Source: Deltaproteobacteria bacterium (lineage in GTDB: Bacteria > Myxococcota > UBA727 > JABDBI01). From it: a stretch of 32,888 bases of DNA. Where the stretch lies: positions 1 to 32,888 of the forward strand of contig JAESQZ010000163.1 of the NCBI GenBank assembly GCA_016764955.1. The letters are read 5' to 3'. The notes beneath the pieces were generated by a model. That model made no database searches, was not told the origin of the DNA, and saw only the letters and a list, made by a program, of their open reading frames with translations. Within the stretch, counting starts at the first letter, position 1, and each line of letters starts with the position of its first letter. This document shows positions 11,340 through 32,888 of this stretch, one piece after another. The position numbers were made by a program, and so were the translations under genes.

Positions 11340-11353
11340 CTTTAATATGACTC

Positions 11354-12148: not shown

Positions 12149-12151
12149 TCA

Positions 12152-15407: not shown

Positions 15408-15989
15408 ATGCATACAAAACAGTATTTTGAAGAAACATGTAAAATCGCTGGCCTCGTAGATATCCATGCAATTGAAAAACTGGTGTCAGAACTGGTAGCG
15501 CTTCGTAGGCGTGAAGGAAGACTTTTTTTCTTGGGGGTTGGTGGAAGTGCAGCCAACTGTAGTCATGCGGTCAATGATTTTAGAAAGCTTTGTGGCATCG
15601 AGGCTTATACGCCAGTCGATAATGTTTCAGAATTGACCGCTCGTACCAATGATGAAGGATGGCATACCGTATTTTCGGAATGGTTGCAGGGTAGCAAAGC
15701 CAATAAAAACGATGCTGTATTTGTGTTATCTGTAGGCGGTGGAAGTGTTAAAAATCATGTTAGTGTTAACATTGTTAATGCCCTTCGAGAAGCCAAATCC
15801 CGTAATATGAAAATTTTTGGTGTTGTTGGCCGTGATGGTGGTTATACTAAGGAAGTAGGGGATGTGGTCGTCGTTATTCCAACAGTGAATGAATCGAAAA
15901 TTACGCCGCATACAGAGGCCTTTCACGCAGTGGTTTGGCACTGCTTAGTTTCTCACCCGGAATTACAGCAAGTTGCGACGAAATTGTGA
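15408..15989 (+). CDS. gmhA: SIS-domain sedoheptulose-7-phosphate isomerase
   Basis: A 193-aa protein with LFFLGVGGSAANCSHAVNDF and VFVLSVGGGS. The size and motifs fit GmhA, and gmhB and hldE-like genes lie alongside. Confidence 0.75.
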   Translation: MHTKQYFEETCKIAGLVDIHAIEKLVSELVALRRREGRLFFLGVGGSAANCSHAVNDFRKLCGIEAYTPVDNVSELTARTNDEGWHTVFSEWLQGSKANKNDAVFVLSVGGGSVKNHVSVNIVNALREAKSRNMKIFGVVGRDGGYTKEVGDVVVVIPTVNESKITPHTEAFHAVVWHCLVSHPELQQVATKL

Positions 15990-16530
15990 TATTTTAAAAA
16001 GACGAGCGGTCTTTTTAGACCGCGATGGCGTTGTCAATCATCCTGTTATTAGAAATGGGAAATCTTACTCACCTCAATCGATAGAAGAATTCGAGCTTTT
16101 GCCGGGTGTTATCCAAGCAGTAAACTCACTTCGCCAGGCAGGGTTCTTAATTGTTATCGTGACGAATCAACCTGATGTTTCAAAAGGTACTCAAACCCGA
16201 GAAGTCATAGAATCAATGCACAATGTGTTGTGGTCTACTTTATCTCTAGATGATATTAAAATATGTTTTCATGTGGATTTAGATGGTTGTTATTGTCGAA
16301 AACCAAAACCCGGTATGTTGTTTGAAGCAGCTAGAGAGCTGGAAATTGACTTGTCACTAAGTTTTATAGTGGGTGATCGATGGCGAGATGTGGCAGCAGG
16401 AAAAAGTGCTGGTTGTTACACGTTTTTTATTGATTATGGATATGCAGAACAACGTCCTGATGACCCGGATGCAATCGTGGAGTCATTAGAAGAGGCAAGC
16501 CAGCTTATTTTAGAGGGGGAACAAATATGA
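15973..16530 (+). CDS. gmhB: D-glycero-D-manno-heptose 1,7-bisphosphate phosphatase (HAD-IIIA)
   Basis: AVFLDRDGVVN (DxDGV), VTNQPDVSKG, the Cys cluster CFH..DGCYCRKPKPGM (zinc-binding loop plus RKP) and VGDRWRDVAAG. The TTG start overlaps the gmhA end. Confidence 0.8.
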   Translation: MRRNCDILKRRAVFLDRDGVVNHPVIRNGKSYSPQSIEEFELLPGVIQAVNSLRQAGFLIVIVTNQPDVSKGTQTREVIESMHNVLWSTLSLDDIKICFHVDLDGCYCRKPKPGMLFEAARELEIDLSLSFIVGDRWRDVAAGKSAGCYTFFIDYGYAEQRPDDPDAIVESLEEASQLILEGEQI

Positions 16531-17228
16531 AAGTGAAGCTTTTTGCAGATGGTGCAGATCTAAATGGCATGAAAGAAATGTATGCCAATCCGTTGATTAA
16601 GGGGTTTACAACCAATCCGACCTTAATGCGAAAAGCCGGCATTCAAGATTATCGAACATTCGCACGTCAAGTTCTTGAAGCCATACCTGATCGTCCGATT
16701 TCTTTCGAAGTATTCGCCGATGACTTTGATGACATGAAGCGCCAAGCGTTGGAAATCGCATCTTGGGGAAAAAACGTGAACGTAAAAATCCCAGTGACCA
16801 ATACCAAGAATCAGTTTGCTGGTCACTTGATTGAGTATCTTTCCAAAGAAGGAGTTTCTCTGAATGTAACTGCATTAATGTCTCTGAAACAAGTTGGGCA
16901 GGTGTCGGACTGTTTAGCACCTGAGACACCTGCGATTATTTCTGTATTTGCAGGGCGTATAGCAGATACTGGTGTTGATCCAATGCCCATGATGGCTGAG
17001 GCCGTCAAGATTATGCATGCCAAACCTAAAGCAGAATTAATTTGGGCAAGTCCACGGGAATTACTCAATATTTTTCAAGCAGATGCAGTAGGTTGTCATA
17101 TTATTACGGCCACTAATGATATTTTGAAAAAGCTCTCACTGGTTGGTAAAGATCTAGATCAGTATTCGCTCGAGACTGTTGAAATGTTCCATAGGGACGC
17201 CATGGTGGCTGGATACACAATTAACTAA
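16527..17228 (+). CDS. Transaldolase/fructose-6-phosphate aldolase family protein (short TalC/FSA-like type)
   Basis: KLFADGADLNGMKEMYANPLIKGFTTNPTLM and NVKIPVT (Schiff-base Lys context) in a ~230-aa protein. ATGA overlap with gmhB. Confidence 0.7.
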   Translation: MKVKLFADGADLNGMKEMYANPLIKGFTTNPTLMRKAGIQDYRTFARQVLEAIPDRPISFEVFADDFDDMKRQALEIASWGKNVNVKIPVTNTKNQFAGHLIEYLSKEGVSLNVTALMSLKQVGQVSDCLAPETPAIISVFAGRIADTGVDPMPMMAEAVKIMHAKPKAELIWASPRELLNIFQADAVGCHIITATNDILKKLSLVGKDLDQYSLETVEMFHRDAMVAGYTIN

Positions 17229-17242
17229 AAAGGAAACGATAG

Positions 17243-18244
17243 ATGTTTAAGAATGTATTAATCACTGGTGGCGCTGGTTATGTTGGTTGTGTATTGACTC
17301 GTCAATTGCTGGGTGCTGACTATGATGTGACTGTTTATGATGCGATGTATTTTGGACGCGACGGTTTGCCGGAACACTCAAATTTAAGAGTGATTGAAGG
17401 AGATATTCGAGACACCCCAAAACTAAAAAATGCTTTTGAGGGGATGGATATTGTCCTGAATCTAGCTTGTATTTCAAATGACCCTAGCTTTGATCTGGAT
17501 GAGAACCTAAGTAAAAGCATTAATTTTGATTGTTTTGAACCCATGGTTGTTGCTGCTAAGCAAGCTGGTGTAAAACGTTTTATTTATGCTTCTACAAGCT
17601 CAGTGTATGGAGTGAGTTCGGCACCTGACGTGACAGAAGAACATCCATTGGTACCTTTGACCTATTACAACAAGTTTAAAGGGCTATGTGAGCCGTTGTT
17701 GTTTAAGCATCAGTCACCTGAGTTTACTTGTGTGACGGTTCGGCCTGCAACTGTTTGCGGTTATAGTCCGCGGACTCGTTTAGACCTTTCAGTCAATATT
17801 TTAACCAACCATGCAGTTAATAATAACAAGATTACTGTATTCGGTGGTTCTCAGCTACGTCCTAGCCTGCATGTCAATGACATGGCAGACTTGTACAAAC
17901 TTCTATTAGAAGTTCCAAATGAAAAGATAGCTGGTCAGACATTCAATTCAGGTTACGAGAATCATAGCATCGCAGAGATTGCTGGGATGGTTCGAAAAGT
18001 AGTTTTAGAGGAGTTTCCCAAAAAAACAGATATTCCGATTGAGACAGTGCCAACGGACGATCTGAGATCCTACCATATTAATTCGGACAAGATTGCTCGG
18101 GTTCTCGGGTTTAAACCTAAACGCAACATTGAAGATGCTGTTAGAGACCTATGCAAAGCTTTTAAAGATGGCCAACTTCCAAATAGTTTCACGGATGATC
18201 GATACTACAATGTCAAAACCATGAAGAATCTAGATGCCAAATAA
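17243..18244 (+). CDS. NAD-dependent nucleotide-sugar epimerase/dehydratase (extended SDR)
   Basis: VLITGGAGYVGC, ASTSSVYG and YYNKFKG (YxxxK). AAGGAAA lies upstream of the ATG. Specificity is unknown. Confidence 0.7.
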   Translation: MFKNVLITGGAGYVGCVLTRQLLGADYDVTVYDAMYFGRDGLPEHSNLRVIEGDIRDTPKLKNAFEGMDIVLNLACISNDPSFDLDENLSKSINFDCFEPMVVAAKQAGVKRFIYASTSSVYGVSSAPDVTEEHPLVPLTYYNKFKGLCEPLLFKHQSPEFTCVTVRPATVCGYSPRTRLDLSVNILTNHAVNNNKITVFGGSQLRPSLHVNDMADLYKLLLEVPNEKIAGQTFNSGYENHSIAEIAGMVRKVVLEEFPKKTDIPIETVPTDDLRSYHINSDKIARVLGFKPKRNIEDAVRDLCKAFKDGQLPNSFTDDRYYNVKTMKNLDAK

Positions 18245-19229
18245 AGCTATTGCGCTTGTAACTGGTGGCGCCGGGTTTATTGGAAGCCACATGGTAGATT
18301 TGTTGATTGAAGAAGGCTGCGAAGTTCGAGTAATAGATAATTTATCAGGTGGTCGCGAAGAGAATCTTGCACACCATCATTCTAATGCCGTTACTTTAGA
18401 ACATCGAGATATTCGACAAATAATGCCAGGTGATGCGGTATTCCAAGGCGTGGATTATGTGTTTCATTTTGCTGGACTTGGAGATATCGTGCCATCTATT
18501 GAGCGTCCGCTCGAATATATGTCAGCCAATGTCCAGGGTACTGTACAAATGCTTGAGTGTGCGCGTTTTGCAGGTGTTTCAAAATTTGTCTATGCGGCAT
18601 CTTCTTCGTGTTATGGGCTTGCCGATGTGCCTACCAGAGAAGATCATCTGATAGCACCGCAGTATCCCTATGCATTGAGTAAATATCAAGGTGAACAGGC
18701 CTGTTTTCATTGGCATCGTGTTTACGGCTTGCCAGTAAATTCGATTCGAATATTCAATGCCTATGGAATCAGATCTAGAACTTCGGGGGCTTACGGTGCT
18801 GTTTTTGGTGTTTTCTTAAAGCAGAAACTAGCAAGAAAGCCGTTTACAGTTGTAGGCGATGGGGCACAGTCCCGTGATTTCTTATATGCGTCTGATGTTG
18901 CAGATGCTTTTTATTTGGCAGCGATGACAAATCGGGCTGGTGAAATTTATAATCTTGGCGCAGGTAATCCGCAGACAATTAAATACTTGGTAGAGCTGTT
19001 AAATGGCCCTGTGGTGTATTTGCCAAAACGTCCTGGTGAACCGATGTGTACCTGGGCGAATACTTCCAAGATTCAAGCACACTTAGGATGGGCGCCCAAA
19101 GTAAGTTTTGAAGAAGGCGTTAAACGAGTAGTCGCAAATATTGATTATTGGCAAAAGGCGCCTCTGTGGAATCCAGATAGCATCGCGGGTGCGACAAAGA
19201 CATGGTTTGATATGCTAGAGGGGGCGTAG
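18234..19229 (+). CDS. NAD-dependent nucleotide-sugar epimerase/dehydratase (extended SDR, GalE/UXS-like)
   Basis: ALVTGGAGFIGSHMVDLL, AASSSCYG and PYALSKYQGE (YxxxK). Specificity is unknown. Confidence 0.7.
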   Translation: MPNKAIALVTGGAGFIGSHMVDLLIEEGCEVRVIDNLSGGREENLAHHHSNAVTLEHRDIRQIMPGDAVFQGVDYVFHFAGLGDIVPSIERPLEYMSANVQGTVQMLECARFAGVSKFVYAASSSCYGLADVPTREDHLIAPQYPYALSKYQGEQACFHWHRVYGLPVNSIRIFNAYGIRSRTSGAYGAVFGVFLKQKLARKPFTVVGDGAQSRDFLYASDVADAFYLAAMTNRAGEIYNLGAGNPQTIKYLVELLNGPVVYLPKRPGEPMCTWANTSKIQAHLGWAPKVSFEEGVKRVVANIDYWQKAPLWNPDSIAGATKTWFDMLEGA

Positions 19230-19233
19230 GGAA

Positions 19234-20793
19234 ATGGACACAGAGAGCAGAGATCTACTTGCTCACAAGATCAAAACTGTTGATCAGCTCTGTGAGTTAA
19301 TAGGAGCTCGTCCTCGGAAAAAGAAAGTAATCATGTGTCATGGAACATTCGATGTGGTTCATCCAGGACACATTAGACATCTGTTATATGCAAAAACGAA
19401 GGGCGATATACTCATTGCTAGTTTGACGGCTGATGAGCATATCGTCAAAGGAAATGTTCGACCTTATGTGCCAGAAGATTTGAGAGCGATGAATCTAGCC
19501 GCGCTGGAAATGGTCGACTACGTGATTATTGATCGACAAGCGACACCCCTGCAAAACCTGAGTGCTATAAAACCCGACTATTTTGCTAAGGGTTATGAGT
19601 ATTCCGCTGGAGCCCTTCACCCTAAGACTCAAGAGGAGGTGACGGTTTTAGAAAATTACGGTGGTGAAATCATCTTTACACCAGGGGATATTGTCTATTC
19701 GTCTTCGGCATTGATTGAATTAGCGCCACCGGAGATAGCTACTGAAAAATTGATGACTCTCATGCAAGCAGAGAATATTAGCTTTAAAGACCTATATGCT
19801 ACGCTCGAACGATTTAGGGGAATCAAAGTACATGTTGTGGGAGACACGATTGTTGATAGTTATTCCCATTGCAATGTAATTGGTGGCATTACAAAGACGC
19901 CAACAATGAGCGTGTTGTTCCAGGAAAGGACTGATTATGTGGGCGGTGCAGGAATTGTGGCCAAACACCTTCAAACTGCTGGTGCCCAAGTAACCTTTTC
20001 GACTGTATTGGGTGATGATAAGTTGAAAGAGTTTGCTTTGAAAGATTTGGAAGCGGCTGGTGTGCAAGTATGCCCCATTATCGATACAACACGACCCACT
20101 ATTAACAAAAATGCGATTGTGGCAGGGGGATATCGGTTGCTCAAAGTGGACACATTGGACAATCGATCTATTTCTGACAAGCAGATTGAGATTTTGAAAA
20201 AACAAATCGCTGAAACTAAGACAGATACAGTCATATTCAGTGACTTTCGTCATGGTATATTCAATCGTCACACGATTCCAAGCCTTGCTTCGGCCATTCC
20301 AGAAGGTGTATTTAAGGTTGCAGATAGCCAAGTGGCCAGTCGTTGGGGTAATATTCTTGAATTCGAAGAATTTGACCTGATTACGCCAAACGAACGTGAA
20401 ACCCGATTTGCTTTAGGTGATCAGGATTCTGTTATTAGACCTATGGCGCTTGAGTTATTCAAGCGTTCAAAATGTAAAACTCTGATTCTTAAATTGGGAG
20501 AGCGCGGTACAATCACGTACCGTTCTAAGGCATTGGTCGATTATCGAGCATTTTTCGCTATCGATAGTTTCGTTGAGCGTTTGGTAGATGCAGTAGGTGC
20601 CGGTGATGCACTATTGGCCTATTCTACACTGGCCATGATACGAACTGGAAATGAGGTCATGGCCTCTATATTAGGCGCTATGGCTGCAGCAGTTGAATGC
20701 GAGCATGATGGAAATGAACCTGTGATGTTGGAAGCAGTCAGGAAGAAGATTCACCGTGTGGAAACACACGCATTGTATCACTACGATGGATAA
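19234..20793 (+). CDS. hldE: Bifunctional heptose-phosphate kinase/nucleotidyltransferase, HldE-like, with inverted domain order (nucleotidyltransferase N-terminal, PfkB kinase C-terminal)
   Basis: aa ~30-160: VIMCHGTFDVVHPGHIRHLLYAK is the HxGH cytidylyltransferase-like fold. aa ~190-519: VHVVGDTIVDSY...GGAGIVAKHL and DAVGAGDALLA form the PfkB/ribokinase signature. Confidence 0.75.
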   Translation: MDTESRDLLAHKIKTVDQLCELIGARPRKKKVIMCHGTFDVVHPGHIRHLLYAKTKGDILIASLTADEHIVKGNVRPYVPEDLRAMNLAALEMVDYVIIDRQATPLQNLSAIKPDYFAKGYEYSAGALHPKTQEEVTVLENYGGEIIFTPGDIVYSSSALIELAPPEIATEKLMTLMQAENISFKDLYATLERFRGIKVHVVGDTIVDSYSHCNVIGGITKTPTMSVLFQERTDYVGGAGIVAKHLQTAGAQVTFSTVLGDDKLKEFALKDLEAAGVQVCPIIDTTRPTINKNAIVAGGYRLLKVDTLDNRSISDKQIEILKKQIAETKTDTVIFSDFRHGIFNRHTIPSLASAIPEGVFKVADSQVASRWGNILEFEEFDLITPNERETRFALGDQDSVIRPMALELFKRSKCKTLILKLGERGTITYRSKALVDYRAFFAIDSFVERLVDAVGAGDALLAYSTLAMIRTGNEVMASILGAMAAAVECEHDGNEPVMLEAVRKKIHRVETHALYHYDG

Positions 20794-21688
20794 TATTATT
20801 GTTGGACTCGGCGTTCAAGGGATGAAGCGGCTTTGTGTTGCTGGTAAGGAAGTGGTTGCAACCATTGATCCTGTACACCCTAAAGCTGATTATCGGTCAG
20901 TGATGGATGTTCCTTTAAATAACTACGAGGCAGCTTTGGTTTGTACACCAGATGATGCCAAAATAGAGCTGCTGACTTATTTGTTGAGCAATGGCAAGCA
21001 TGTTTTAGTAGAAAAACCTTTGCTGACACGAGACAATAGTGAGCTTATTCGGCTGCAAGAACTTGCAAACTCCAAGCAAGTTGTTTGCTATACAGCGTAT
21101 AATCATCGATTTGAACCGCATTTTATGCGGATGAAGCATTTAATTGAGTCAGAGGAACTGGGTCAGATTTATTGCGCACGATTGTTTTATGGCAACGGGA
21201 CTGCTCGCTTGGTTCGAAACTCGTCGTGGCGTGATCAAGGTGGTGGCGTATTGCCCGATCTGGGTTCACATCTGCTCGATACGGCGTTGTTCTGGTTTGG
21301 AAAACCATCAGCTCGGTTTGATGTTTATTCAGCGAATCGTTTTGAAAATCGTTCTTTTGACCATTTTTCATTTGGCTCAAAAGGGTCACCTTTGCTGCAA
21401 TTTGAAATGACTTTGCTTAGCTGGCGCAATCATTTCTACGCCGATGTCTTCGGGGAATATGGCAGCGCACATATCCAATCACTCTGTAAATGGGGACCGA
21501 GTAGTTTTATTCGGCGTTTTAGAAATCTACCCAGTGGAAGACCTGACGAAGAATCCAATACTTTGGTTCAGCCAGACCCCACTTGGGAGCTTGAATATAA
21601 GCATTTCAAAGAGCTTTGTTTGAATGGGAAAAGCAATATCAAAAATGATATTTGGATTAACACTATGCTCAAGGATTTAATGCAATGA
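20786..21688 (+). CDS. Gfo/Idh/MocA-family NAD(P)-dependent oxidoreductase
   Basis: MDNIIVGLGVQGMKR, PDDAKIELLTYLLSNGKHVLVEKPL and the YNHRF pattern. ATG 20786 overlaps the hldE stop by 8 nt. The ORF track opens earlier, at 20756. Confidence 0.7.
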   Translation: MDNIIVGLGVQGMKRLCVAGKEVVATIDPVHPKADYRSVMDVPLNNYEAALVCTPDDAKIELLTYLLSNGKHVLVEKPLLTRDNSELIRLQELANSKQVVCYTAYNHRFEPHFMRMKHLIESEELGQIYCARLFYGNGTARLVRNSSWRDQGGGVLPDLGSHLLDTALFWFGKPSARFDVYSANRFENRSFDHFSFGSKGSPLLQFEMTLLSWRNHFYADVFGEYGSAHIQSLCKWGPSSFIRRFRNLPSGRPDEESNTLVQPDPTWELEYKHFKELCLNGKSNIKNDIWINTMLKDLMQ

Positions 21689-24720: not shown

Positions 24721-24726
24721 CTAAGT

Positions 24727-27219
24727 ATGATTGAAAAAATTAGCTTATCCAGACAAGATCTAGAAGAACTTGAGTGTCTGAAAGTAAATCCAGCAGATAT
24801 TCAAGACGATTACTATGATTACTCAAAAATTGTGGTTAAAAAGCCGTGGGGTTATGAATATCTTATTTTTTCTAATGCCAAAGTCGCCGTCTGGGTTCTT
24901 TATCTTAAACGAGACGCACAAACCTCTGTGCATTGCCATCCCAATAAGAAAACCTCTTTAGTCGTCTTAGAAGGCAAAGTTAATTGTTCGAGCCTTGCGG
25001 GGACACGAGCAAGATCAGCAGGAGAAGGGCTTTTAATTGACAAAGGCGTGTTCCATCAAACAACAGCGGTTTCAAAAACCGGCGCTTTTGTGATGGAAAT
25101 TGAGACGCCCATCAATAAGCGCGATTTGGTTAGGTTAAAAGACAAATATGGACGAGAAGGGAAAGGTTATGAAACCCAAGACCAGTACTGTTTTAATTCG
25201 AAAAATTATAACTATATTTCTTTTCAGAGCAATGTAAAAAAGCATTTTGGACATTGTTCCATGGCATTCAAGAAACTAGTTGATTCAAAAAGTCTCAATG
25301 AAATTTTAGCATTGGACCCTGAAGATGTCGTGTGCCTGCTCGATGGACGGTTGTTAAACGCATCCGGTCATTCTGTTTTAGATATTGGTGACACAGTTGT
25401 TGTCAATGAATTTAGGCAACTGAGACCGGTACAGGTGGATCCAAATTCAGAAATTTTGATTATCAAAAATACAGACCCTATTTCGAAAGTATCAGACATT
25501 GTTTCCAGATTGTTAAATGAAAGAAATGTTAAACCTATTTTTATTGTCCCAGGCGATGCCAATGTTCACCTGCTTGATTCCATCGGAAGATGTGATGGTT
25601 TAAGTTATGTTTGCATGCGAAATGAAAAGAGCGCTTCTTTTGCGGTTGAATCATTTTGTAAATTGCGCTCAACCGTTGGTGCTCTTGTTGTTTCTTCAGG
25701 CTCTTCGGCGATTAGTGCAGTTCCAGGTGTTGCCAATGCCTGGATGGACTCTGTGCCTATGTTGGTGATTTCAGGTCAAGCACGGACAGACCAAAATACA
25801 AAAGGTGGTGTTCGACAATTAAGCGACAAATCTCTCTCTATTACCAACCTAGTCAAGTCTATTACGAAGTATGCGGTTGAGGTGTCGGATCCAGCTCAGA
25901 TTGGCTACCATCTGGATAAGGCTATTTACTTAGCTACTGACGGTAGACCGGGGCCTGTGTGGGTGGATCTTCCTATTGATGTTCAGGGCATGAGTATTCA
26001 TGAAGATGAACTGAGCAAATTTGTTCCTGAAGACAAATCATCTCCTAAGCTAAAAGGACAGATATCGCAGGTCATGGAGATGCTGAAACAGGCATCACGT
26101 CCCGTGATATTAGCTGGGCATGGAATTCGTCAGGCTAAAGCGATAGGAGACTTTTTAGCGCTTATCGAACGACTTAAAATCCCAGTTCTCACTTCTCGAC
26201 GAGGAGCAGATATCATACCCGACGACCATCCTTGGTTTTTTGGTCGACCGGGTGCGTATGGACAACGAAGTGCTAATTTTATTATTCAAAACTGTGATTT
26301 GCTCATCAGTATTGGATCGCGCCTGTCAATTCCGTTGATTGGTCGTAATACTAAAGCCTTTGCCAGAGCAGCTCGTAAAATCGTTGTTGATATTGATGCT
26401 CATGAACTTCAAAAGCCGACTCTCAAAATAGATTTGCCCATTGCTTTGGATGCAGGCGAATTTATTAGAGAGTGCTTGACATTTTTGCCAGATTCGCTGC
26501 CTTCATGTGCTGCTTGGCTTGGGCGCTGCCAAGATTGGCGAGCTAAATTTCCACCTGTCTTATCAAACGACAGTCTATCTTTTGTAAGAATGCTATCAGA
26601 CGAGATGAATGAAAATGATGTCATTGTAGCGGATGGAGGAGCCAGTTTGATTTATGCTCTGCAGGCTTTTTGCTTTAAATCAGGGCAAAGGCTGATCAGT
26701 TCGACGGGACTTGAGCTGCCTGGATTTGCTTTACCAGCAGCGATTGGAGCTTGTATCGCCAGAGACAGCAAATCCATTGTTTGTCTTTGTGAAGACCATG
26801 GATTCCAAAACAATCTGCAAGAATTACAGACAATTATTGATTATCAATTACCTATCAAAATTCTGATTTTGAAAAGCAGAGGGCATTCTATTATCCGCAA
26901 TATACAACGAGATTATTTTGGGAGTCGCTTTGTCGGGACAGATCACGAGATCCGGTTGGGTTCAACGTCTTTGGCACGAATTGCTGAAATATTTGGTTTT
27001 CCAGGTGCAACCACTTTGCAAGAGTTGTTAAAAATCAAAGGACCAGCCGTTTTTGAAGTACAGATCGAAGACGATCAAGATCAAATTCCACGTCCTGGGT
27101 TTATTATTCGGGAAGATCGAAAATGGATGGCCAAGCCACTGGAGGATATGGTTCCATTTTTAGACCGAAAGACATTTCAAGAGAACATGATGATTGATGT
27201 TATTCAGGATGAACTGTGA
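24727..27219 (+). CDS. Fusion of an N-terminal sugar-type cupin (PMI type II-like) to a ThDP-enzyme (acetolactate-synthase-like) body with a degenerate ThDP-Mg motif
   Basis: aa ~35-135: VVKKPWGYEYLIF...SVHCHPNKKTSLVVLEG...GVFHQT is the cupin. From about nt 25491 the sequence aligns to the downstream ThDP enzyme (KYAVEVSDPAQIGYHLDKAIYLATDGRPGPVWVDLP). The PP-domain motif reads CEDHG...ILKSRGH instead of GDG...NNGG. Confidence 0.7.
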   Translation: MIEKISLSRQDLEELECLKVNPADIQDDYYDYSKIVVKKPWGYEYLIFSNAKVAVWVLYLKRDAQTSVHCHPNKKTSLVVLEGKVNCSSLAGTRARSAGEGLLIDKGVFHQTTAVSKTGAFVMEIETPINKRDLVRLKDKYGREGKGYETQDQYCFNSKNYNYISFQSNVKKHFGHCSMAFKKLVDSKSLNEILALDPEDVVCLLDGRLLNASGHSVLDIGDTVVVNEFRQLRPVQVDPNSEILIIKNTDPISKVSDIVSRLLNERNVKPIFIVPGDANVHLLDSIGRCDGLSYVCMRNEKSASFAVESFCKLRSTVGALVVSSGSSAISAVPGVANAWMDSVPMLVISGQARTDQNTKGGVRQLSDKSLSITNLVKSITKYAVEVSDPAQIGYHLDKAIYLATDGRPGPVWVDLPIDVQGMSIHEDELSKFVPEDKSSPKLKGQISQVMEMLKQASRPVILAGHGIRQAKAIGDFLALIERLKIPVLTSRRGADIIPDDHPWFFGRPGAYGQRSANFIIQNCDLLISIGSRLSIPLIGRNTKAFARAARKIVVDIDAHELQKPTLKIDLPIALDAGEFIRECLTFLPDSLPSCAAWLGRCQDWRAKFPPVLSNDSLSFVRMLSDEMNENDVIVADGGASLIYALQAFCFKSGQRLISSTGLELPGFALPAAIGACIARDSKSIVCLCEDHGFQNNLQELQTIIDYQLPIKILILKSRGHSIIRNIQRDYFGSRFVGTDHEIRLGSTSLARIAEIFGFPGATTLQELLKIKGPAVFEVQIEDDQDQIPRPGFIIREDRKWMAKPLEDMVPFLDRKTFQENMMIDVIQDEL

Positions 27220-27232
27220 AGGGATTAGTTTG

Positions 27233-29029
27233 ATGCGCGTTGCTGACTATGTGATTCAGTTTTTTGAAAACCTCGGGGTGGAGCATATCTTCACAGTTTC
27301 AGGAGGCGGATCGATTTTTCTTTGCGATGCTTTAGGGACTGCCAAAAAAATGAAATATGTGGCTTGCCATCATGAGCAAGCGGCATCTATGGCCACAGAA
27401 GCCTATGCGAGAGTTCGCAATGATTTAGGTGTGACTTTGGTGACAGTAGGGCCTGGTGCTACCAATACGGTAACGGGGGTGGCAGGATCTTGGTTGGACC
27501 ACGTTCCGCATGTTACAATTTCAGGACAAATATTTTTAAATCAAACCATTTGCAAAAACCCTGGGTTGCGCACAATGGGTGTGCAAGAGATTGATATTGT
27601 CAGCATTGTTAAGCCCATTACGAAATATGCGGTGATGATAGAAGATGCGACTAAGATTCGTTACCATCTTGAAAAGGCTGTCTATTTAGCAACACATGGC
27701 AGGCCAGGTCCAGTTTGGATTGATATTCCAGGCGATATTCAAAAAGCTGAGATTGATCCTAAACTCCTCCATGGATTTGAACCTGAAGAATCGTCTGTAT
27801 CAATCGAACCCGAATTAAAAGAAAAAGTGAAGTGCTTTATTAAGCTGTTACAGGCAGCAAAACGGCCTTTGTTGCATGTCGGGCAAGGGGTTCGGATTTC
27901 CGGTGCCGAAGGAGAAATGTTTGAACTGATAGAAAAATATAAACTTCCCTTTGTTACAGCTCGAAATGCAAATGATATTACCTCGTCTGACCATGAACTC
28001 TTCGTTGGTCGTCCTGGAACATTTGCGCAGCGAGGTGCTAACTTCGCAGTTCAGACATCTGACTTGTATCTTGCCGTTGGAACACGTTTATCACTTTCTC
28101 AAACGGGATTTAACTCTCACGATTATGCGCGCAATGCCAAGACTGTTATGGTAGATGTTGACTGGGCAGAGTTAAATAAAAAGACTTTGAAGCTCGATTT
28201 GAAGATTCAGGCAGATGCGAAATTATTTTTTCAAGAGTTACTACGCCAATTATCTGAGGAAGACCTGAATACGCACCAATGGGCTTCGTGGATAGAAAAA
28301 TGTCAAACGTGGAAACATCGATACCCGGTTGTTCTCCCAGAATTTCGTGAGCAAGTTGATAGCATTAATTCTTATCATTTTATTGATGTTCTATCAGATG
28401 TTTTGACTCCAGAAGATACGATTGTAACAGATATGGGCTTCGCCTTCCAGAATACACACCAGGCCTTTCGAGTTAAAAAAGGTCAAAGAATGTTCACCAA
28501 TTGTGGTTTAGCCTCTATGGGCTGGGGTTTGCCGGCAGCAGTTGGAGCTTGTTTTGGCAGCGGTAAAAAGAGAACGATTTGTTTGGCTGGCGAAGGGGGA
28601 CTGATGATGACCATCCAAGAGATGGCGACGATTATGCATCATCGTCTTCCAGTAAAGTTGTTTGTTTTCAATAATGGTGGTTATCTGACGATTAAGCAAA
28701 CGCAAGAGTTTGGATTTGGTGGCCGTTTGATGGGGATTAATGCCGAAACTGGACTTTCGTTCCCAGATTTCATGAAAATTGCTGAGGCTTATCAATTCAA
28801 GGCGCTTCGTCTGGATTCGCATGAAAGTCTCAGGCAACGCCTAGAAGAAGTTGTTAATTTCGAGGGCCCGGTTTTTTGTGAAATTATGATGGATCATAAT
28901 CAGTTGCAAGCACCACGAGCGGTCAATCGAAAAAATTCTGATGGCACCATGAAACAAACTCCGCTCGAAGATAGTTATCCATTTTTGGATCAGAGAGAAG
29001 TTCAAGAAAATCTAAACATTGCTAGTTAG
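27233..29029 (+). CDS. Thiamine-diphosphate-dependent enzyme, acetolactate synthase large-subunit/YerE-like
   Basis: MRVADYVIQFFENLGVEHIFTVSGGG, CHHEQAASMATEAYAR (catalytic Glu), GPGATN, RPGPVWIDIP and LAGEGGLMMTIQEMATIMHHRLPVKLFVFNNGGY (ThDP-Mg motif with GEG in place of GDG). The ORF track opens at 27194; ATG 27233 gives the family-typical N-terminus. Confidence 0.8.
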   Translation: MRVADYVIQFFENLGVEHIFTVSGGGSIFLCDALGTAKKMKYVACHHEQAASMATEAYARVRNDLGVTLVTVGPGATNTVTGVAGSWLDHVPHVTISGQIFLNQTICKNPGLRTMGVQEIDIVSIVKPITKYAVMIEDATKIRYHLEKAVYLATHGRPGPVWIDIPGDIQKAEIDPKLLHGFEPEESSVSIEPELKEKVKCFIKLLQAAKRPLLHVGQGVRISGAEGEMFELIEKYKLPFVTARNANDITSSDHELFVGRPGTFAQRGANFAVQTSDLYLAVGTRLSLSQTGFNSHDYARNAKTVMVDVDWAELNKKTLKLDLKIQADAKLFFQELLRQLSEEDLNTHQWASWIEKCQTWKHRYPVVLPEFREQVDSINSYHFIDVLSDVLTPEDTIVTDMGFAFQNTHQAFRVKKGQRMFTNCGLASMGWGLPAAVGACFGSGKKRTICLAGEGGLMMTIQEMATIMHHRLPVKLFVFNNGGYLTIKQTQEFGFGGRLMGINAETGLSFPDFMKIAEAYQFKALRLDSHESLRQRLEEVVNFEGPVFCEIMMDHNQLQAPRAVNRKNSDGTMKQTPLEDSYPFLDQREVQENLNIAS

Positions 29030-29038
29030 GAGAAAAAA

Positions 29039-29560
29039 ATGCAAAAAAAAGCGATTATTATGGCGGGGAAATTGATTCAGGATCACGAGTTTATCTATCC
29101 GTATTATCGACTTCAAGAAGAAGAATTCGAAGTCGATGTTGCCGTCAGAGGGAAAGAGACGGTAACGGGTTTTCTTGGAGCCAAGGTGGTTCCGACGAAA
29201 GATATTCCGGAACTCAAGGTTGAAGATTACCAGGTTTTGGTTTTGCCAGGTGGCGCTAAAGCTATGGAGTATATGAGGCAGGACCAAGATATTTTGAACT
29301 TTATCGCTGATTTTCACGCTTCTGGTAAAGTGATCGCTTCGATTTGCCATGCTGGTCAGTTATTAATCTCGGCCAAGCTGGTGAAAGACAGAAAAATATC
29401 AGCCTATTATAGTATCAAAGACGATGTTAATAATGCCGGTGGAACTTATATCGATGCGCCTTTTGTTACGGATGATCGCATTGTAAGCTGTCCTCACTAC
29501 AAGCATCTAGGCCCATGGATGAAAGAAGTTATTCATCAAGTCCAGAAGACCTGTGGATGA
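29039..29560 (+). CDS. DJ-1/PfpI-family protein (class I glutamine amidotransferase-like fold)
   Basis: A 173-aa protein with VLVLPGG, KVIASICHAGQLL (nucleophile-elbow Cys followed by His, as in PfpI) and DDRIVSCPHY. The RBS TAGGAG lies upstream. Confidence 0.7.
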   Translation: MQKKAIIMAGKLIQDHEFIYPYYRLQEEEFEVDVAVRGKETVTGFLGAKVVPTKDIPELKVEDYQVLVLPGGAKAMEYMRQDQDILNFIADFHASGKVIASICHAGQLLISAKLVKDRKISAYYSIKDDVNNAGGTYIDAPFVTDDRIVSCPHYKHLGPWMKEVIHQVQKTCG

Positions 29561-30201
29561 TTAGATTTAAAGGCATTTTGTTTGATTTCGATGGCACATT
29601 GGCAGACACGATGCCTGGGCATTATATGGCCTGGAAAAGTGCTCTTTCAGAGCATGGTATTGATGTTCAGGCAAACGATTATTATCCCCTGGAAGGGATG
29701 CAGCTTCATGAAATCGCCATGAAATTAACAAGGGAGCAACGTTGGACAAGAAATGCGATCGATGAGCTCGTTCAACGAAAGAAGCGGTGCTATGTTAATA
29801 AGAAATCGGTGAGGTTATATCCAGGTGTAAACTCTCTCATCGCAGAGCTCAAGGCACAGCGAATTCCGATGGGTATTGTAACAGCAGGACATCTCGATCA
29901 ATTGCAGTTGTCAGCTCCGATAGAATTTTTAAAAAAATTTGATGCACTCATAACGGGCGATCAAGTTTCGAAGGGGAAGCCTCATCCAGAGCCTTATTTG
30001 CGAGGAGCCAAGGCACTTGGACTGGATCCACAAGAGTGCATTGCCGTGGAAAATGCGCCGCTAGGAGTTCAATCAGCGAAGCAGGCAGGGACATATTGTA
30101 TTGCAATTTGTTCAACAGTTAGCAGACAAGATCTGTTGGGTGCCGATGAAATTTTGGATCGATTTGAAGAATTGAAAACATGCGCGAATTTGATATTTTA
30201 A
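29557..30201 (+). CDS. HAD-superfamily hydrolase (beta-phosphoglucomutase/phosphatase-like)
   Basis: MIRFKGILFDFDGTLADT (DxDGT), VTAG, SKGKPHPEPY and VENAPLGVQSAKQAG. ATG 29557 forms an ATGA overlap with the pfpI-like stop. The ORF track opens at 29515. Confidence 0.75.
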   Translation: MIRFKGILFDFDGTLADTMPGHYMAWKSALSEHGIDVQANDYYPLEGMQLHEIAMKLTREQRWTRNAIDELVQRKKRCYVNKKSVRLYPGVNSLIAELKAQRIPMGIVTAGHLDQLQLSAPIEFLKKFDALITGDQVSKGKPHPEPYLRGAKALGLDPQECIAVENAPLGVQSAKQAGTYCIAICSTVSRQDLLGADEILDRFEELKTCANLIF

Positions 30202-30878
30202 AAGGTTACCCGGAGCCGAAAGAACCTCGATGGGTTCACCAAAACATTAGAACAATTCAAAATCGTATCAACGCCTCCTATCGAGATCGAAAATTCTACG
30301 ACGGAGATCGAAATGATGGATATGGGGGTTTTCAGTACGATGGGCGATGGGAACCGATTGCTCGGAATATTTGTAAAAAATATGCTCTCGATGATCAGTC
30401 TGCTATTTTACAAATTGGATGTGACAAAGGATTTCTACTCCACGAATTGTTACAATTGCATCCAGGCATGGAAGTAGTTGGGACTGAAATCTCTGATTAT
30501 GCAATTGCTTGTGGAATGCCCTTGGTCAAACCAAAGATTCAAAAAACGCCATTCCAAACTTTGCCTTTTCGAGATGGAAAATTTGATTTCGTGATTGCTA
30601 TTGGAGCTGTCTATACGCTGAATTTGTCGGATGCCATCGCTTGTCTCAAAGAGATTCAGCGAGTTTCCAAGGGAAAAAGTTTTATTACGCTGGGTGCTTA
30701 TGATGGCGAAGAAGACTTCCGTTTGTTTAGATATTGGACATTGTTGGGGTGCACTGTTTTACCCAAGTCAGATTGGATCGAAGTGCTCAAACATGTAGGT
30801 TATACTGGTGACTATAAATTTAATACTGCTGGTTCATTGAATCTAAAGGAGGCGTTTGATGTTAAATCGCTACAATGA
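30180..30878 (+). CDS. Class I SAM-dependent methyltransferase
   Basis: ILQIGCDKGFLLHEL (motif I variant), VVGTEIS (acidic residue at the end of beta-2) and FDFVIAIGAVY (motif III/IV region). The target is unknown. Confidence 0.65.
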   Translation: MREFDILKGYPEPKEPRWVHQNIRTIQNRINASYRDRKFYDGDRNDGYGGFQYDGRWEPIARNICKKYALDDQSAILQIGCDKGFLLHELLQLHPGMEVVGTEISDYAIACGMPLVKPKIQKTPFQTLPFRDGKFDFVIAIGAVYTLNLSDAIACLKEIQRVSKGKSFITLGAYDGEEDFRLFRYWTLLGCTVLPKSDWIEVLKHVGYTGDYKFNTAGSLNLKEAFDVKSLQ

Positions 30879-31719
30879 GCTTTGGAATAAAATTGATAAC
30901 GAAGACACAAGGCCCCGTTTTGCGCGTCATATTATCGAGATGGCCTACGATGAATTTGAAGCAAAAGTTTTGGAGCAGAATCCAGGGTTTGTAAAAGAAA
31001 CAGTTGAATCGTTGTACTCAGGCGATGTTTATTTGCTTAAAAATGGTTTTTCAAAACAATTTATGGAGCGTTTAATTGATAAAGTGTTCCATGTTTTTCA
31101 ATCTGGACCATCAAGATTTTATAAAATGCTGGAGGGGTGCCCTAATTTTCATCGAATTCATGATGAGGAGGCTTCAAAAAAATACATTTTTCAATCAGTT
31201 CGACATTCATATTACTGGTTCCCTTGGAATGGCGATTCTATGGGTGTGAATCAGGGAATCATGAAACGCTGGAGAATTTTTAAATTTCTAGGTGGTTTTC
31301 GACTAGATGAGTATGAAAACAATACGCCAAAAGATGGGGTTGTTGATCGTTTTCAAGTGGCCAGATACCTGCCTGGGATAGGTCGTGTTGAAACCCATTC
31401 TGATCCATTTCAAAATCAAAGATTTTTTATTTCTGGTTTTATGAGTAAACGTGGAGTTGACTATGAAAAAGGTGGGTTTTATGTGGTTTCCCCAGGAAAC
31501 AAATTGAAAGACATCGAAGAGTTTGTTGATGTTGGGGATATTAGTATTGGCTACGCAACTATTTTGCACGGTGTTGATTTGGTAGATCCAGGCAGACCAG
31601 TAGACTGGGCTAAGAATGATGGTCGTTGGTGGTTCGGAGTATATAGTAATTCAACAGATGCAGTGCCTAATCGAGCCATAGGTAAGCCTGTACGGATATC
31701 TTTGACGCGTGAAAGCTAA
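30859..31719 (+). CDS. Hypothetical protein, possible Fe(II)/2-oxoglutarate-dependent oxygenase-like fold
   Basis: A strong RBS AAGGAGG lies 6 nt before ATG 30859. RVETHSDP (HxD) is followed about 60 aa later by YATILHGVD...GR, which fits an HxD...H...R facial-triad layout. No stronger family signature was recognised. Confidence 0.35.
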   Translation: MLNRYNELWNKIDNEDTRPRFARHIIEMAYDEFEAKVLEQNPGFVKETVESLYSGDVYLLKNGFSKQFMERLIDKVFHVFQSGPSRFYKMLEGCPNFHRIHDEEASKKYIFQSVRHSYYWFPWNGDSMGVNQGIMKRWRIFKFLGGFRLDEYENNTPKDGVVDRFQVARYLPGIGRVETHSDPFQNQRFFISGFMSKRGVDYEKGGFYVVSPGNKLKDIEEFVDVGDISIGYATILHGVDLVDPGRPVDWAKNDGRWWFGVYSNSTDAVPNRAIGKPVRISLTRES

Positions 31720-32467
31720 ACGAATTTTAATTACAGGCGCATCGAAGGGGCTGGGTGCTGTTGCTGCGAAAGCATTTGCCAGTCAGGGAGCCCATATAGC
31801 TCTGGTTGCACGTTCAGGAGAACATTTGGAGCGAATTTGTCAATCGTGTGAATTTCCTGAAAGACATAGAATTTTTACTACCGATTTGATGCAAATGACA
31901 AAAATCCAATCTGTCGTACAAGAGATAAAAGAATTTCTCGGTGGTATCGATATTGTTCTTCATGCAGCTGGAGGTGGACTCGGATTGCGAGAAGACTTGC
32001 TTGGGCACGAGGATTTTTCGAAACTCTTTGCCTTGAATCTTGGAGCGGCTGCTGAGATCAATCGCTGGGTTGTACCCTCTATGAAAGATCAAAACTTTGG
32101 CAATCTTGTTCACGTAGGATCGATCGCGTCTAGTGAAGGCATTGGGTCTGTTGGTTATAACACAGTGAAGGCAGCTTTAGCCGCTTATGTTCGAAGTCTT
32201 GGCCGAGAATTGGCACGCTTTAATATTGTGGCAACAGGAATCCTACCAGGTGGATTTATCGCTCCTGAGAATGCCATGGCTAGACTTCAAGAAAACAAGC
32301 CAGATGTCTATCAAAAATTTACTGAAGAACGTTTGCCTCGAAAAAAAATGGGTGAAGCCGAAGAGTTGATACCTATTCTGACACTTCTATGCTCTGAAGG
32401 GGCTTCGATGATGGGTGGGTGTCTTGTGCCCATCGATGCTGGAGAAGGAAGAGCTTACTGCGCTTAA
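31709..32467 (+). CDS. Classical short-chain dehydrogenase/reductase (SDR)
   Basis: ILITGASKGLGAVAAKAFASQGA (TGxxxGxG), HAAGG, GSIASS and YNTVKAAL (YxxxK). GTG start at 31709. Confidence 0.8.
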   Translation: MKAKRILITGASKGLGAVAAKAFASQGAHIALVARSGEHLERICQSCEFPERHRIFTTDLMQMTKIQSVVQEIKEFLGGIDIVLHAAGGGLGLREDLLGHEDFSKLFALNLGAAAEINRWVVPSMKDQNFGNLVHVGSIASSEGIGSVGYNTVKAALAAYVRSLGRELARFNIVATGILPGGFIAPENAMARLQENKPDVYQKFTEERLPRKKMGEAEELIPILTLLCSEGASMMGGCLVPIDAGEGRAYCA

Positions 32468-32481
32468 ATTTGGAGATGACA

Positions 32482-32888
32482 ATGCCATCGTATTTTGTGC
32501 CTTACGCAGCCTTATCGATCGAGGCTTCACGGATCAAAGATGAGCTTATGCGAGCCATCGAGAAAGTGCTTGATGGTGGTCGCTATATACTCGGGCCGGA
32601 AGTAGGTGGTTTTGAGTCTGAGTTTGCAAAATATTGCCAGACAGAGTTCGCCTGTGGTGTCGATAATGGAACCAGTGCTCTGTTTCTGGCACTTCGCGCA
32701 ATGGGTATACAAGAAGGTGATGAGGTTATTACGGCTCCAAACTCGTTTGTTGCCTCTGCTTCTTCTATTGTATTAGCGGGTGCAAAACCTGTATTTATAG
32801 ATATAGCCAATGATGGCAATATAGATCCACAAAGGCTTGAAGAAGCGATTACCCCCAAAACTCGAGCCATCATGCCCGTGCATTTGAC
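32482..32888 (+). CDS. DegT/DnrJ/EryC1/StrS-family PLP-dependent sugar aminotransferase, 5' part only (runs off the window end)
   Basis: This ORF is not in the track because it has no stop in the window. GGAG lies 6 nt upstream. The translation is MPSYFVPYAALSIEASRIKDELMRAIEKVLDGGRYILGPEVGGFESEFAKYCQTEFACGVDNGTSALFLALRAMGIQEGDEVITAPNSFVASA...RAIMPVHL, a typical N-terminal half of the family. Confidence 0.8.
   Translation, partial: MPSYFVPYAALSIEASRIKDELMRAIEKVLDGGRYILGPEVGGFESEFAKYCQTEFACGVDNGTSALFLALRAMGIQEGDEVITAPNSFVASASSIVLAGAKPVFIDIANDGNIDPQRLEEAITPKTRAIMPVHL

Follow-up and report, generated by a model that had tools for sequence, protein, structure and literature searches.

Acyl branches are installed on nucleoside diphosphate (NDP)-activated keto-sugars by thiamine diphosphate (ThDP)-dependent carboligases, a reaction that is established for YerE (yersiniose A) and ErwE (erwiniose) and has been proposed for several lipopolysaccharide (LPS) sugars. 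These enzymes decarboxylate a 2-oxo acid and carry out an addition to the NDP-keto-sugar, which is followed by side-chain reduction, and the described YerE-type acceptors are all CDP-3,6-dideoxy-4-keto-hexoses (CDP, cytidine diphosphate; PMC12188165, PMC12247030, PMC9306805). JanthE (PDB 8RPH) from Janthinobacterium sp. HH01 is a YerE-like enzyme with an unusual CDG motif that couples 2-oxo acids to ketones; its physiological substrates are unknown (PMC12188165, PMC12247030). Here we analyse contig JAESQZ010000163.1 of a Deltaproteobacteria bacterium (Myxococcota; assembly GCA_016764955.1). The entire contig of 32,888 nt is called the window, and the feature under study, at positions 15408-32888, holds two JanthE/YerE-like ThDP proteins among sugar-activation genes of the heptose or octose type. 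Judged from gene families, motifs and linkage, we consider it roughly an even call that this run of genes is one conserved cassette for a nucleotide-activated, carbon-branched higher sugar of a surface glycan.

All 33 long open reading frames (ORFs) of the contig are on the + strand. Eighteen of them fall within 15408-32888, joined by overlaps or by gaps of no more than 14 nt, which bears out the tight same-strand run with overlapping stops and starts given in a preliminary description of this DNA; the + strand run spans all 32.9 kb and does not start at 15408. Families were assigned by Pfam and NCBIfam profile searches of the ORF translations, and the equivalog cut-offs quoted are those of NCBIfam. 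The searches reproduced all gene families of the preliminary description save the cupin and the HxD..H protein, for which structure models were needed. The gene order at the 5' end is SIS, GmhB-like, transaldolase, SDR, SDR, HldE-like; the HldE-like gene had been placed ahead of the two extended short-chain dehydrogenases/reductases (SDRs), which in fact come first. The features are:

15408..15989, + strand: SIS-domain sugar-phosphate isomerase, distant GmhA relative (Pfam SIS_2)
15973..16530, + strand: HAD-IIIA phosphatase, GmhB-like (NF006506; TTG start uncertain)
16527..17228, + strand: short-type transaldolase (TIGR02134)
17243..18244, + strand: extended SDR 1, epimerase- or reductase-like (Pfam Epimerase; reaches no equivalog)
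18234..19229, + strand: extended SDR 2, GalE/TviC/HldD-like epimerase (Pfam Epimerase, GDP_Man_Dehyd; SSSCYG...YALSK)
19234..20793, + strand: nucleotidyltransferase plus PfkB kinase, HldE-like with reversed domains (CTP_transf_like, PfkB)
20756..21688, + strand: Gfo/Idh/MocA oxidoreductase (Pfam; likely start ATG 20786)
21685..22916, + strand: member of the NDP-sugar dehydrogenase family lacking the Cys (Ugd-like), frameshifted (UDPG_MGDP_dh N-terminal and central domains)
22913..23731, + strand: RmlD-like short extended SDR, probable keto-reductase (Pfam Epimerase, RmlD_sub_bind)
23731..24720, + strand: NDP-sugar 4,6-dehydratase-like SDR, RmlB-like overall, with TSELYG (TIGR01181)
24727..27219, + strand: metal-cupin (residues 1-250) fused to a ThDP-like body, 830 aa (three TPP domains, residues 254-769)
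27194..29029, + strand: stand-alone JanthE/YerE-like ThDP enzyme, 611 aa (JanthE match; likely start ATG 27233)
29039..29560, + strand: DJ-1/PfpI protein, Cys-His site intact (Pfam PF01965)
29515..30201, + strand: HAD-IA phosphatase, beta-phosphoglucomutase family (Pfam HAD_2, 120 bits)
30180..30878, + strand: class I S-adenosylmethionine (SAM) methyltransferase (Pfam Methyltransf_11, _25)
30859..31719, + strand: 286-aa protein with a predicted Fe(II)/2-oxoglutarate dioxygenase fold (AlphaFold/Foldseek)
31709..32467, + strand: classical SDR, candidate side-chain ketoreductase (YerF analogue by position; Pfam adh_short, 118 bits)
32482..32888, + strand: DegT/DnrJ/EryC1 aminotransferase, N-terminal 135 aa, cut at the contig end (Pfam, 144 bits)

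Comparison with YerE-type systems

Among characterised enzymes of solved structure, JanthE stands closest to both ThDP bodies. It has the same three domains and the Glu of HHEQ, a variant GDG motif (CDG in JanthE, GEG in the window) and a C-terminal 'PLED..P' tail, and its gene lies in an NDP-sugar cluster with DegT and SDR genes. The JanthE locus (L082; AMWD01000002.1, 4131597-4153429) encodes an NTP_transferase, a 4,6-dehydratase, an RfbH-like DegT protein, JanthE, an SDR, an acetaldehyde dehydrogenase, an HMGL-type aldolase and glycosyltransferases. Unlike the window, it has no cupin, DJ-1, second ThDP body or HldE/SIS/transaldolase genes. Its layout is erwiniose-like, a hexose route in which the aldolase and the acetaldehyde dehydrogenase are the donor makers (PMC9306805). 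The content of the JanthE locus suggests a 4-hydroxy-2-oxo acid as the natural donor of JanthE and a CDP-3,6-dideoxy-4-ketohexose as its acceptor. By position, the cupin and DJ-1 of the window may replace the donor-making enzymes of erwiniose-like clusters.

In common with the YerE/YerF (yersiniose A) and ErwE/ErwF (erwiniose) systems, the window has a carboligase-like protein, keto-forming enzymes and a candidate reductase. It differs from them in that the sole activation route within the cassette is HldE-like, and in the cupin fusion, the DJ-1 partner and the motif-altered ThDP paralogue, which are not in their descriptions. Both in the window and in the 81 related loci that we mapped, the ThDP genes sit in an NDP-sugar context with keto-sugar-forming enzymes and a reductase. 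A YerE-like scheme is favoured because in YerE-type clusters, that of JanthE included, the ThDP enzyme comes together with keto-sugar genes and a reductase for the side chain. A search of one literature library found no paper linking YerE with heptose, in line with the earlier remark that no characterised pathway joining heptose activation with ThDP carboligation was known to its author. A 2024 mining study by Krug et al. reportedly yielded more than 200 YerE-like clusters. Relative to the described YerE-type systems (the clusters of that study lie outside the comparison), four features are new: HldE/SIS/transaldolase genes as the context, fusion of the cupin with its fission variants, DJ-1/PfpI as a constant partner, and a ThDP paralogue with an altered motif.

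ThDP proteins and cupin domain

Pfam found TPP_enzyme_N, _M and _C in both ThDP proteins. Affinity to YerE-like enzymes or to acetohydroxyacid synthase (AHAS) was judged by pairwise PDB bit scores, not by a tree: the stand-alone protein scored 453 bits with 8RPH (JanthE), 282 with 5AHK and 252 with E. coli AHAS I, and the ThDP body of the fusion gave 346, 222 and 192 bits, respectively. We take 5AHK, which ranks second among the PDB matches, to be PpYerE. Against the AHAS equivalog TIGR00118 the two proteins reached 383 and 316 bits, below the cut-off of 538. No AHAS small subunit (ACT domain) was found among the 33 window ORFs, and no ilv genes in the window. With JanthE as the best solved relative and scores below the AHAS cut-off, the proteins are not housekeeping IlvB/IlvI.

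The stand-alone protein is 37.9% identical to JanthE and has the same 'PLED..P' tail. Its motifs are HHEQ and GEG...NN, with Glu for Asp, and the latter is kept in 18 homologues. The fusion carries EDH for GDG and KS for NN in place of the canonical Mg-ThDP motif; the catalytic Glu300 is invariant. Among the altered fused bodies of related loci, the Glu is kept in 25 of 27 and GDG...NN in none of the 27. The stand-alone protein is also nearer (47% identity) to the type A bodies, which are canonical ThDP bodies fused to a cupin in other loci (see below), than is the fused body of the window (39.5%), which on sequence identity marks the fused copy as the diverged one. The preliminary description spoke of two ThDP enzymes; one canonical enzyme is indeed present, but the fused paralogue has its Mg-ThDP motif replaced (EDH...KS).

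ThDP enzymes form their active site between the PYR (pyrimidine-binding) domain of one subunit and the PP (pyrophosphate-binding) domain of the other. Retention of the Glu with loss of GDG...NN in the fused bodies is expected if only the PYR domain of the fusion faces a working site. The motif states suggest a heteromer, in which, we infer, the fusion gives a PYR domain and the cupin, and the stand-alone subunit holds ThDP. The stand-alone JanthE/YerE-like protein is the probable catalytic subunit. The cupin-fused paralogue most likely pairs with this subunit and would not be an independent second carboligase.

The cupin extension, predicted in the preliminary description as part of a cupin-ThDP fusion, was confirmed by an AlphaFold model (pLDDT, predicted local distance difference test, 85.8) together with sub-threshold Pfam matches. 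In the window these matches are weak (Cupin_2, 17.8 bits; C-terminal domain of phosphomannose isomerase (PMI), 17.7 bits), and PMI_C rises above threshold in one homologue. The top 50 Foldseek matches are metal cupins only, including oxalate decarboxylase, cysteine and ergothioneine dioxygenases, BacB, AerE and PMI. His69, His71 and His110 are invariant among 30 homologues. Searched alone, the cupin unit matched 677 representatives (E <= 1e-10) in a set of 1.84 billion proteins, some of them free-standing and others fused. A role as an FdtA/RmlC-type NDP-sugar ketoisomerase or epimerase was also considered for the cupin and is unsupported by the Foldseek top 50, which hold metal cupins only.

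Conservation in related loci

A scan of one genome per species for relatives of the fusion returned 199, of which the best 80 are all metagenome-assembled genomes (MAGs) or single-cell genomes. The hosts of these 80 include Chloroflexota, Binatia, Elusimicrobia, Nitrospirota, Planctomycetota, Omnitrophota, Bacteroidota, Proteobacteria, phyla of the candidate phyla radiation (CPR) and DPANN archaea. The fusion protein has hundreds of full-length homologues (48-68% identity), which are metagenomic or annotated as 'hypothetical' or 'acetolactate synthase'. A Coxiella burnetii O-antigen region, considered at first in view of the branched sugars virenose and dihydrohydroxystreptose and a GC content of ~43%, was rejected as the identity of this DNA because its close homologues are without exception metagenomic proteins lacking a name. 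Gene maps, co-occurrence counts and the ThDP alignment cover 81 related loci.

The full cassette, with its order kept, is found in L002 (Chloroflexota), L004 (SAR202) and L008 (Elusimicrobia) at protein identities of 43-81%, and L001/L003 (Binatia) and L005 show it over the part that these loci cover. Chance does not account for the arrangement, because the same gene set and order recurs in MAGs of Chloroflexota, SAR202, Elusimicrobia and Binatia. The earlier claim that the cassette is a unit is upheld by this order in MAGs of four phyla and by the near-identical contig L084. The recurring core is cupin plus ThDP plus DJ-1/PfpI, with DJ-1 present in 62 of the 81 loci and mostly directly adjacent. 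In a check of the synteny of hldE with ThDP genes, an HldE-like gene was found no more than 10 kb from this core in 25 of the 81 loci, often with an SDR 2 homologue (54-57%) and a SIS gene.

Alignment of ~100 ThDP proteins from the 81 loci distinguished three architectures. Type A (35 loci) joins the cupin in one protein with a ThDP body whose motifs are all canonical (HHEQ/GDG/NN). Type B (21 loci, among them every close relative of the window) has the altered fusion (EDR/EDH...KS/RS) and a stand-alone canonical enzyme, mostly with GEG. Type C (15 loci, mostly of CPR bacteria) has the cupin (~255 aa) in a gene of its own and a canonical enzyme, and 11 of the 15 loci contain NTP_transferase, SDR and DegT genes, i.e., a hexose route; some have Ldh_2. 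A DegT gene lies alongside the module in 14 of the 21 window-type loci. The occurrence of fused, fused plus stand-alone, and split architectures (fusion/fission) argues that cupin, ThDP protein and DJ-1 work together. Since the activation genes differ by locus type, the triad behaves, by its genomic distribution, as a portable module joined to varied sugar-activation modules.

The type A loci (L024-L069, e.g., L036, L047 and L052) have further contents of their own: 81 copies of B12-binding radical-SAM proteins were counted in 36 loci, along with SPASM and HemN-like radical-SAM proteins, UxaA-like sugar-acid dehydratases and NUDIX proteins. This radical-SAM/UxaA context hints at heavily C-methylated or long polyhydroxylated side chains.

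Activation genes

Of the named models, GmhA, GmhB and HldE fit the three activation proteins best, and in each case the score is far below cut-off. The SIS protein gave 60 bits with TIGR00441 (gmhA; cut-off 209), and GmhA structures were its sole PDB matches, at no more than 52 bits. The GmhB-like phosphatase scored 127 bits with NF006506 (cut-off 178). In the HldE-like protein the CTP_transf_like domain (residues 35-144) precedes the PfkB domain (201-489), and residues 14-148 align to positions 323-455 of the HldE profile, so that the transferase comes first and the kinase second, in contrast to the canonical kinase-first architecture. Its scores were 123 bits for rfaE_dom_I (cut-off 345), 94.5 for rfaE_dom_II (181.5) and 150 for HldE (521). 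The preliminary description of gmhA/gmhB/hldE heptose activation named the best families, but none of them at equivalog level. The transaldolase scored 350 bits with TIGR02134, above the cut-off of 282, and its gene overlaps the phosphatase stop by 4 nt. The window encodes just two nucleotidyltransferases, the HldE-like protein and the PseF-like cytidylyltransferase of an upstream pseudaminic acid (Pse) module.

Homologues of the SIS protein (53-77% identity) occur in L002, L004 and L064, with the same phosphatase and transaldolase next in each; the order SIS/phosphatase/transaldolase is kept even in the distant L064 (53, 39 and 52% identity). L008 begins at its transaldolase and L084 just upstream of its own, and the coverage of these two loci starts downstream of any SIS/phosphatase neighbours. 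Clustering placed 25 proteins, from 25 of the 81 related loci, in the HldE-like group.

The cassette resembles the adenosine diphosphate (ADP)-heptose pathway in the same four families (GmhA, HldE, GmhB and HldD), which are the best-scoring named models, and differs from it in the sub-cut-off scores, the reversed HldE domains and the embedded transaldolase. We know of no described heptose-activation cluster that contains a transaldolase. In the lincosamide octose route a transaldolase is the first enzyme (PMC12945683, PMC4351081). The lmb/ccb clusters comprise transaldolase R, isomerase N, kinase P, phosphatase K and nucleotidyltransferase O, followed by epimerase M, 'dehydrogenase' L, NAD(P) oxidoreductase Z and aminotransferase S; compared by family tables only, these enzyme types match those of the window one for one (PMC12945683, PMC4351081). 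At this family level, the window holds one representative of each type, including an adjacent Gfo/Idh/MocA and UGDH-like pair. LmbP is of the GHMP type and LmbO of the guanosine diphosphate (GDP) type, whereas the kinase/transferase of the window is HldE-type. Further differences are that the lmb cluster is without a ThDP enzyme and that the cassette presumably serves a surface glycan instead of an antibiotic. Because of the dedicated transaldolase and the LmbL/LmbZ/LmbM/LmbS-like enzyme set, an octose would by analogy be as plausible as a heptose; the latter is equally possible if the transaldolase merely supplies sedoheptulose-7-phosphate. The heptose product first envisaged is in this respect one of two candidates.

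Sugar-modifying enzymes

Homologues of SDR 1 occur in 18 loci (52-78% identity), and in many loci an SDR 2 homologue (54-77% identity) stands next to the HldE-like gene. L001-L004, L008, L011 and L084 share the gene order gfo, ugd-like, rmlD-like; in L005 the gfo and rmlD-like genes are mapped with a Ugd-like ORF between them. The RmlD-like gene comes after the Ugd-like gene in the syntenic loci. Gfo/Idh/MocA gave just weak, uninformative PDB matches to sugar dehydrogenases. The Ugd-like protein belongs to the UDPG_MGDP_dh family, as described earlier, but it is without the catalytic Cys and its gene is frameshifted at 22639. Its motif GGNLERD aligns to GGSCFPKD of 4A7P and 3GG2, with Asn in the place of the nucleophilic Cys that all uronic-acid-forming relatives have. 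This Asn is kept in nine of nine window-type homologues; type A loci carry the canonical Cys version. Since the catalytic Cys is missing, the enzyme is predicted to be unable to form a uronic acid and at most to convert an alcohol to a carbonyl. The conserved Asn fits such a two-electron oxidation to a carbonyl.

Both the GTSELYG and the YAVSK motif noted before are present in the translation of the dehydratase. Its assignment to the GMD type is not borne out: it scored 169 bits with TIGR01181 (RmlB) vs. 43 bits with TIGR01472 (gmd; cut-off 415), and deoxythymidine diphosphate (dTDP)-glucose 4,6-dehydratases are its best PDB matches. Among the relatives, the gene was found only in the window, L084 and L009 (58% identity). 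The dehydratase is accessory: because most syntenic relatives lack it, formation of the keto acceptor is unlikely to depend on it. The similarity to DmhA/WcbK (GDP-6-deoxyheptose, GMD family) consists in a TSELYG dehydratase-like SDR beside heptose-type activation genes; in contrast to those enzymes, the dehydratase of the window is RmlB-like overall and is not conserved in the cassette.

The DJ-1/PfpI protein matched PF01965 at 139 bits and TIGR01382 at 138.5 bits (cut-off 139.05); over 62 homologues, conservation of its Cys103, His104 and Glu17 is 95% or more. The HAD-IA phosphatase (TIGR02009, 131 vs. 153 bits) is present in 22 related loci, and the methyltransferase (47-73% identity) and the classical SDR (51-72% identity) in 28 each. 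The 286-aa protein gave no Pfam or NCBIfam match, and its 399 homologues are without functional annotation ('hypothetical'). Its AlphaFold model (pLDDT 96.3) matched T7H, JOX2 and IPNS in Foldseek with a probability of 1.00, at a template modelling (TM) score of only 0.45-0.49. H180, D182 and H237 do not vary, and conservation of R256 is 90% or more, so the HxD..H protein of the preliminary description is found again, with a predicted 2-oxoglutarate (2OG) oxygenase fold. Full-length DegT homologues are present in L004 and L008 (66-67% identity).

Proposed pathway and alternative readings

That the ThDP enzyme acts on the HldE-made sugar is suggested by gene linkage, and the substrates and step order that we infer are as follows. 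The transaldolase would form a ketose phosphate, either sedoheptulose-7-phosphate or, from ribose-5-phosphate, octulose-8-phosphate. The SIS protein, the kinase domain of the HldE-like protein, the GmhB-like phosphatase and the HldE-like nucleotidyltransferase domain would convert it to NDP-heptose or NDP-octose, which the two GalE-like SDRs may epimerise. The Cys-less UGDH-like enzyme, with Gfo/Idh/MocA and the RmlD-like reductase, would oxidise a secondary alcohol to a ketone, and in this strain the RmlB-like 4,6-dehydratase may also act, giving a keto or deoxy-keto intermediate. The stand-alone JanthE/YerE-like enzyme would decarboxylate a 2-oxo acid and add the acyl anion to the ketone, leaving an acyl branch on a tertiary alcohol; the cupin-fused paralogue would pair with it, contributing the Glu-bearing PYR domain and a metal-cupin active site. 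Finally, the classical SDR could reduce the side-chain ketone, the methyltransferase methylate, the 2OG-oxygenase-like protein hydroxylate and the DegT protein aminate the product, with DJ-1/PfpI and the HAD phosphatase serving the donor or the side chain.

Several points weigh against this scheme. All hosts of the related loci are uncultured, and the chemistry is wholly predicted from genes; the activation genes are all under their equivalog cut-offs. The type C module stands beside NDP-hexose genes (11/15 loci), so that nothing intrinsic ties the acceptor to a heptose. The contig stops inside the DegT gene, and an NDP-hexose route could lie just beyond. The fold match of the cupin model is generic, and no role of its own in the scheme is assigned to DJ-1. 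Since the altered motif of the fusion is kept among close relatives (CxCEDxGF...LKSxG), this protein, instead of being inactive, may have an uncommon mode of binding ThDP or another ligand.

A mosaic glycan island, in which the heptose/octose genes and the ThDP module serve different sugars of one repeat unit, is a rather doubtful reading that still deserves attention. The YerE-like enzyme would then branch an NDP-4-keto-6-deoxyhexose, the product of the RmlB-like dehydratase, with the NDP-hexose supplied from elsewhere in the genome. The NTP_transferase, SDR and DegT genes beside the type C module represent the same hexose route as for YerE and JanthE, the dehydratase gene is directly upstream of the fusion gene, and the contig, which ends abruptly, belongs to a larger island whose products include pseudaminic acid. 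However, no glucose-1-phosphate nucleotidyltransferase is found in the window, L002, L004 and L008 are without the dehydratase and yet have HldE-like, gfo, ugd-like and rmlD-like genes adjoining the ThDP genes, and order and tight spacing are kept across phyla. Taken literally, the scheme of the preliminary description, in which ADP- or GDP-heptose is converted to the 4-keto-6-deoxyheptose by a GMD/DmhA-type enzyme and then used by two active ThDP enzymes in succession, is improbable. It agrees with GmhA, GmhB and HldE as the best family matches and with the TSELYG dehydratase gene adjoining the ThDP genes; against it are the RmlB-like scores (43 bits GMD vs. 169 RmlB) and poor conservation of the dehydratase and the fused ThDP body without GDG...NN, and it gives no role to the transaldolase or to the Cys-less UGDH/Gfo pair.

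DJ-1/PfpI enzymes are hydrolase- or glyoxalase-type enzymes of small carbonyl substrates. On this basis the ThDP/cupin/DJ-1 module might make a small acyloin or acyl unit that is attached N- or O-linked to amino sugars or nonulosonic acids, with no branching of the sugar carbon. The module occurs with DegT in 14/21 window-type loci and travels with donor-type enzymes such as Ldh_2 and UxaA-like dehydratases, and the island makes Pse and has a second NeuB-type synthase. We nevertheless regard this as quite improbable: no acyltransferase or ligase is conserved beside the module, and JanthE, YerE and ErwE all add to ketones, those with a known physiological role to sugar ketones. An ordinary AHAS function of both ThDP proteins in branched-chain amino acid synthesis, placed in a sugar island by chance, has a negligible probability. 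AHAS models are the top NCBIfam matches by name and JGI labels the homologues acetolactate synthase, but both proteins miss the cut-off (383 and 316 vs. 538 bits), JanthE scores far higher than any AHAS, neither a small subunit nor ilv genes accompany them, and the context is always glycan genes. A housekeeping AHAS role is excluded for practical purposes.

The branched higher-sugar scheme can be taken further, to a reading that joins a lincosamide-like NDP-octose route, an obligate hetero-oligomer and the triad as a general branch-installing module. The route, with 6-oxidation by the Cys-less UGDH/Gfo pair, would be the first outside actinomycete antibiotic clusters and would serve a surface glycan. 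The fused paralogue would lend its PYR domain to the JanthE-like subunit, with one working site per dimer. The cupin/ThDP/DJ-1 triad would act across more than 15 phyla, including CPR bacteria and DPANN archaea. We offer this combination tentatively and think it rather unlikely to hold as a whole.

Sequence errors and upstream region

Contig L084 from ENA is independent of the window and is 99.47% identical to window positions 16090-27393. It came from a 100%-identical match in the homology search; look-ups of window proteins by exact sequence gave no match. One nucleotide is missing from an A-run at 22639, which splits the Ugd-like gene of the window and puts its C-terminal domain in another frame; in L084 the gene is intact (410 aa). 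Upstream, at 8450-9528, a second NeuB-type synthase is likewise in two ORFs, with one G apparently missing near 9098 (TTGG^AC); restoring it regains the NeuB 'GLSDHT' motif. Given these two like 1-nt losses, the frameshifts at 22639 and ~9098 are probably homopolymer assembly errors, not pseudogenes. The 59 substitutions between L084 and the window are uneven, with clusters at 18278-18335 (start of SDR 2) and 22963-23339 (RmlD-like gene), which suggests recombination or strain heterogeneity. GC skew is above zero in each 1-kb bin of the window (+0.03 to +0.23). A scan of the window found sigma-70-like promoters and intrinsic-terminator-like sites at a frequency not above that of shuffled sequence, and an Rfam scan of the window found no family.

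Window positions 126-7903 encode a complete pseudaminic acid pathway at equivalog level (PseB 501, PseI 509 and PseC 547 bits), with PseG carrying a C-terminal GNAT (PseH-like) domain and a PseF-like cytidylyltransferase. A HisH/WbuZ-like/WbuX amidotransferase trio follows the Pse genes and suggests a nonulosonic acid with an acetamidino modification. Apart from 7904-8449 the contig has no long non-coding stretch. At 8317-8466 a fragment in frame 0 ('FRLTIDYREDLQLIKEICKTL') is similar to the C-terminal end of SpsF/NeuA-type cytidylyltransferases and may be what is left of a gene. The gap 7904-8449 was also considered as a decayed cytidylyltransferase gene; tblastn with the PseF-like protein of the window gave nothing there.

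Positions 9518-14131 encode an amidinotransferase/arginine-deiminase-fold protein (weak PF02274), a HAD phosphatase, and 264- and 659-aa proteins without a Pfam match. The 659-aa protein may belong to the same system as the cassette, because a 39%-identical homologue at the edge of L081 lies beside SIS/SDR/cupin/ThDP genes. Directly upstream of the cassette, at 14149-15348, is a gene for L-2-hydroxyglutarate oxidase (535 bits vs. the 299 cut-off). The 2-oxoglutarate from this enzyme could be a co-substrate of the 2OG-oxygenase-like protein and of DegT, or a ThDP donor. As a conserved supplier of the donor the oxidase was discarded, with a homologue in none of the 81 related loci.

Implications

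ThDP-installed acyl branches have so far been known only on 3,6-dideoxyhexoses of a few cultured bacteria. The cassette ties the YerE-like enzyme class to a heptose/octose activation route, and the three-part cupin/ThDP/DJ-1 module recurs in hundreds of uncultured lineages. At 17 kb, the cassette is small enough for heterologous expression. If the scheme is true, it would provide new ketone-accepting carboligases with partner proteins for biocatalysis and an example from nature of a ThDP enzyme that has a paralogue with an altered motif as its partner, and the surface-glycan chemistry of bacteria and archaea would widen to branched C7/C8-based sugars.

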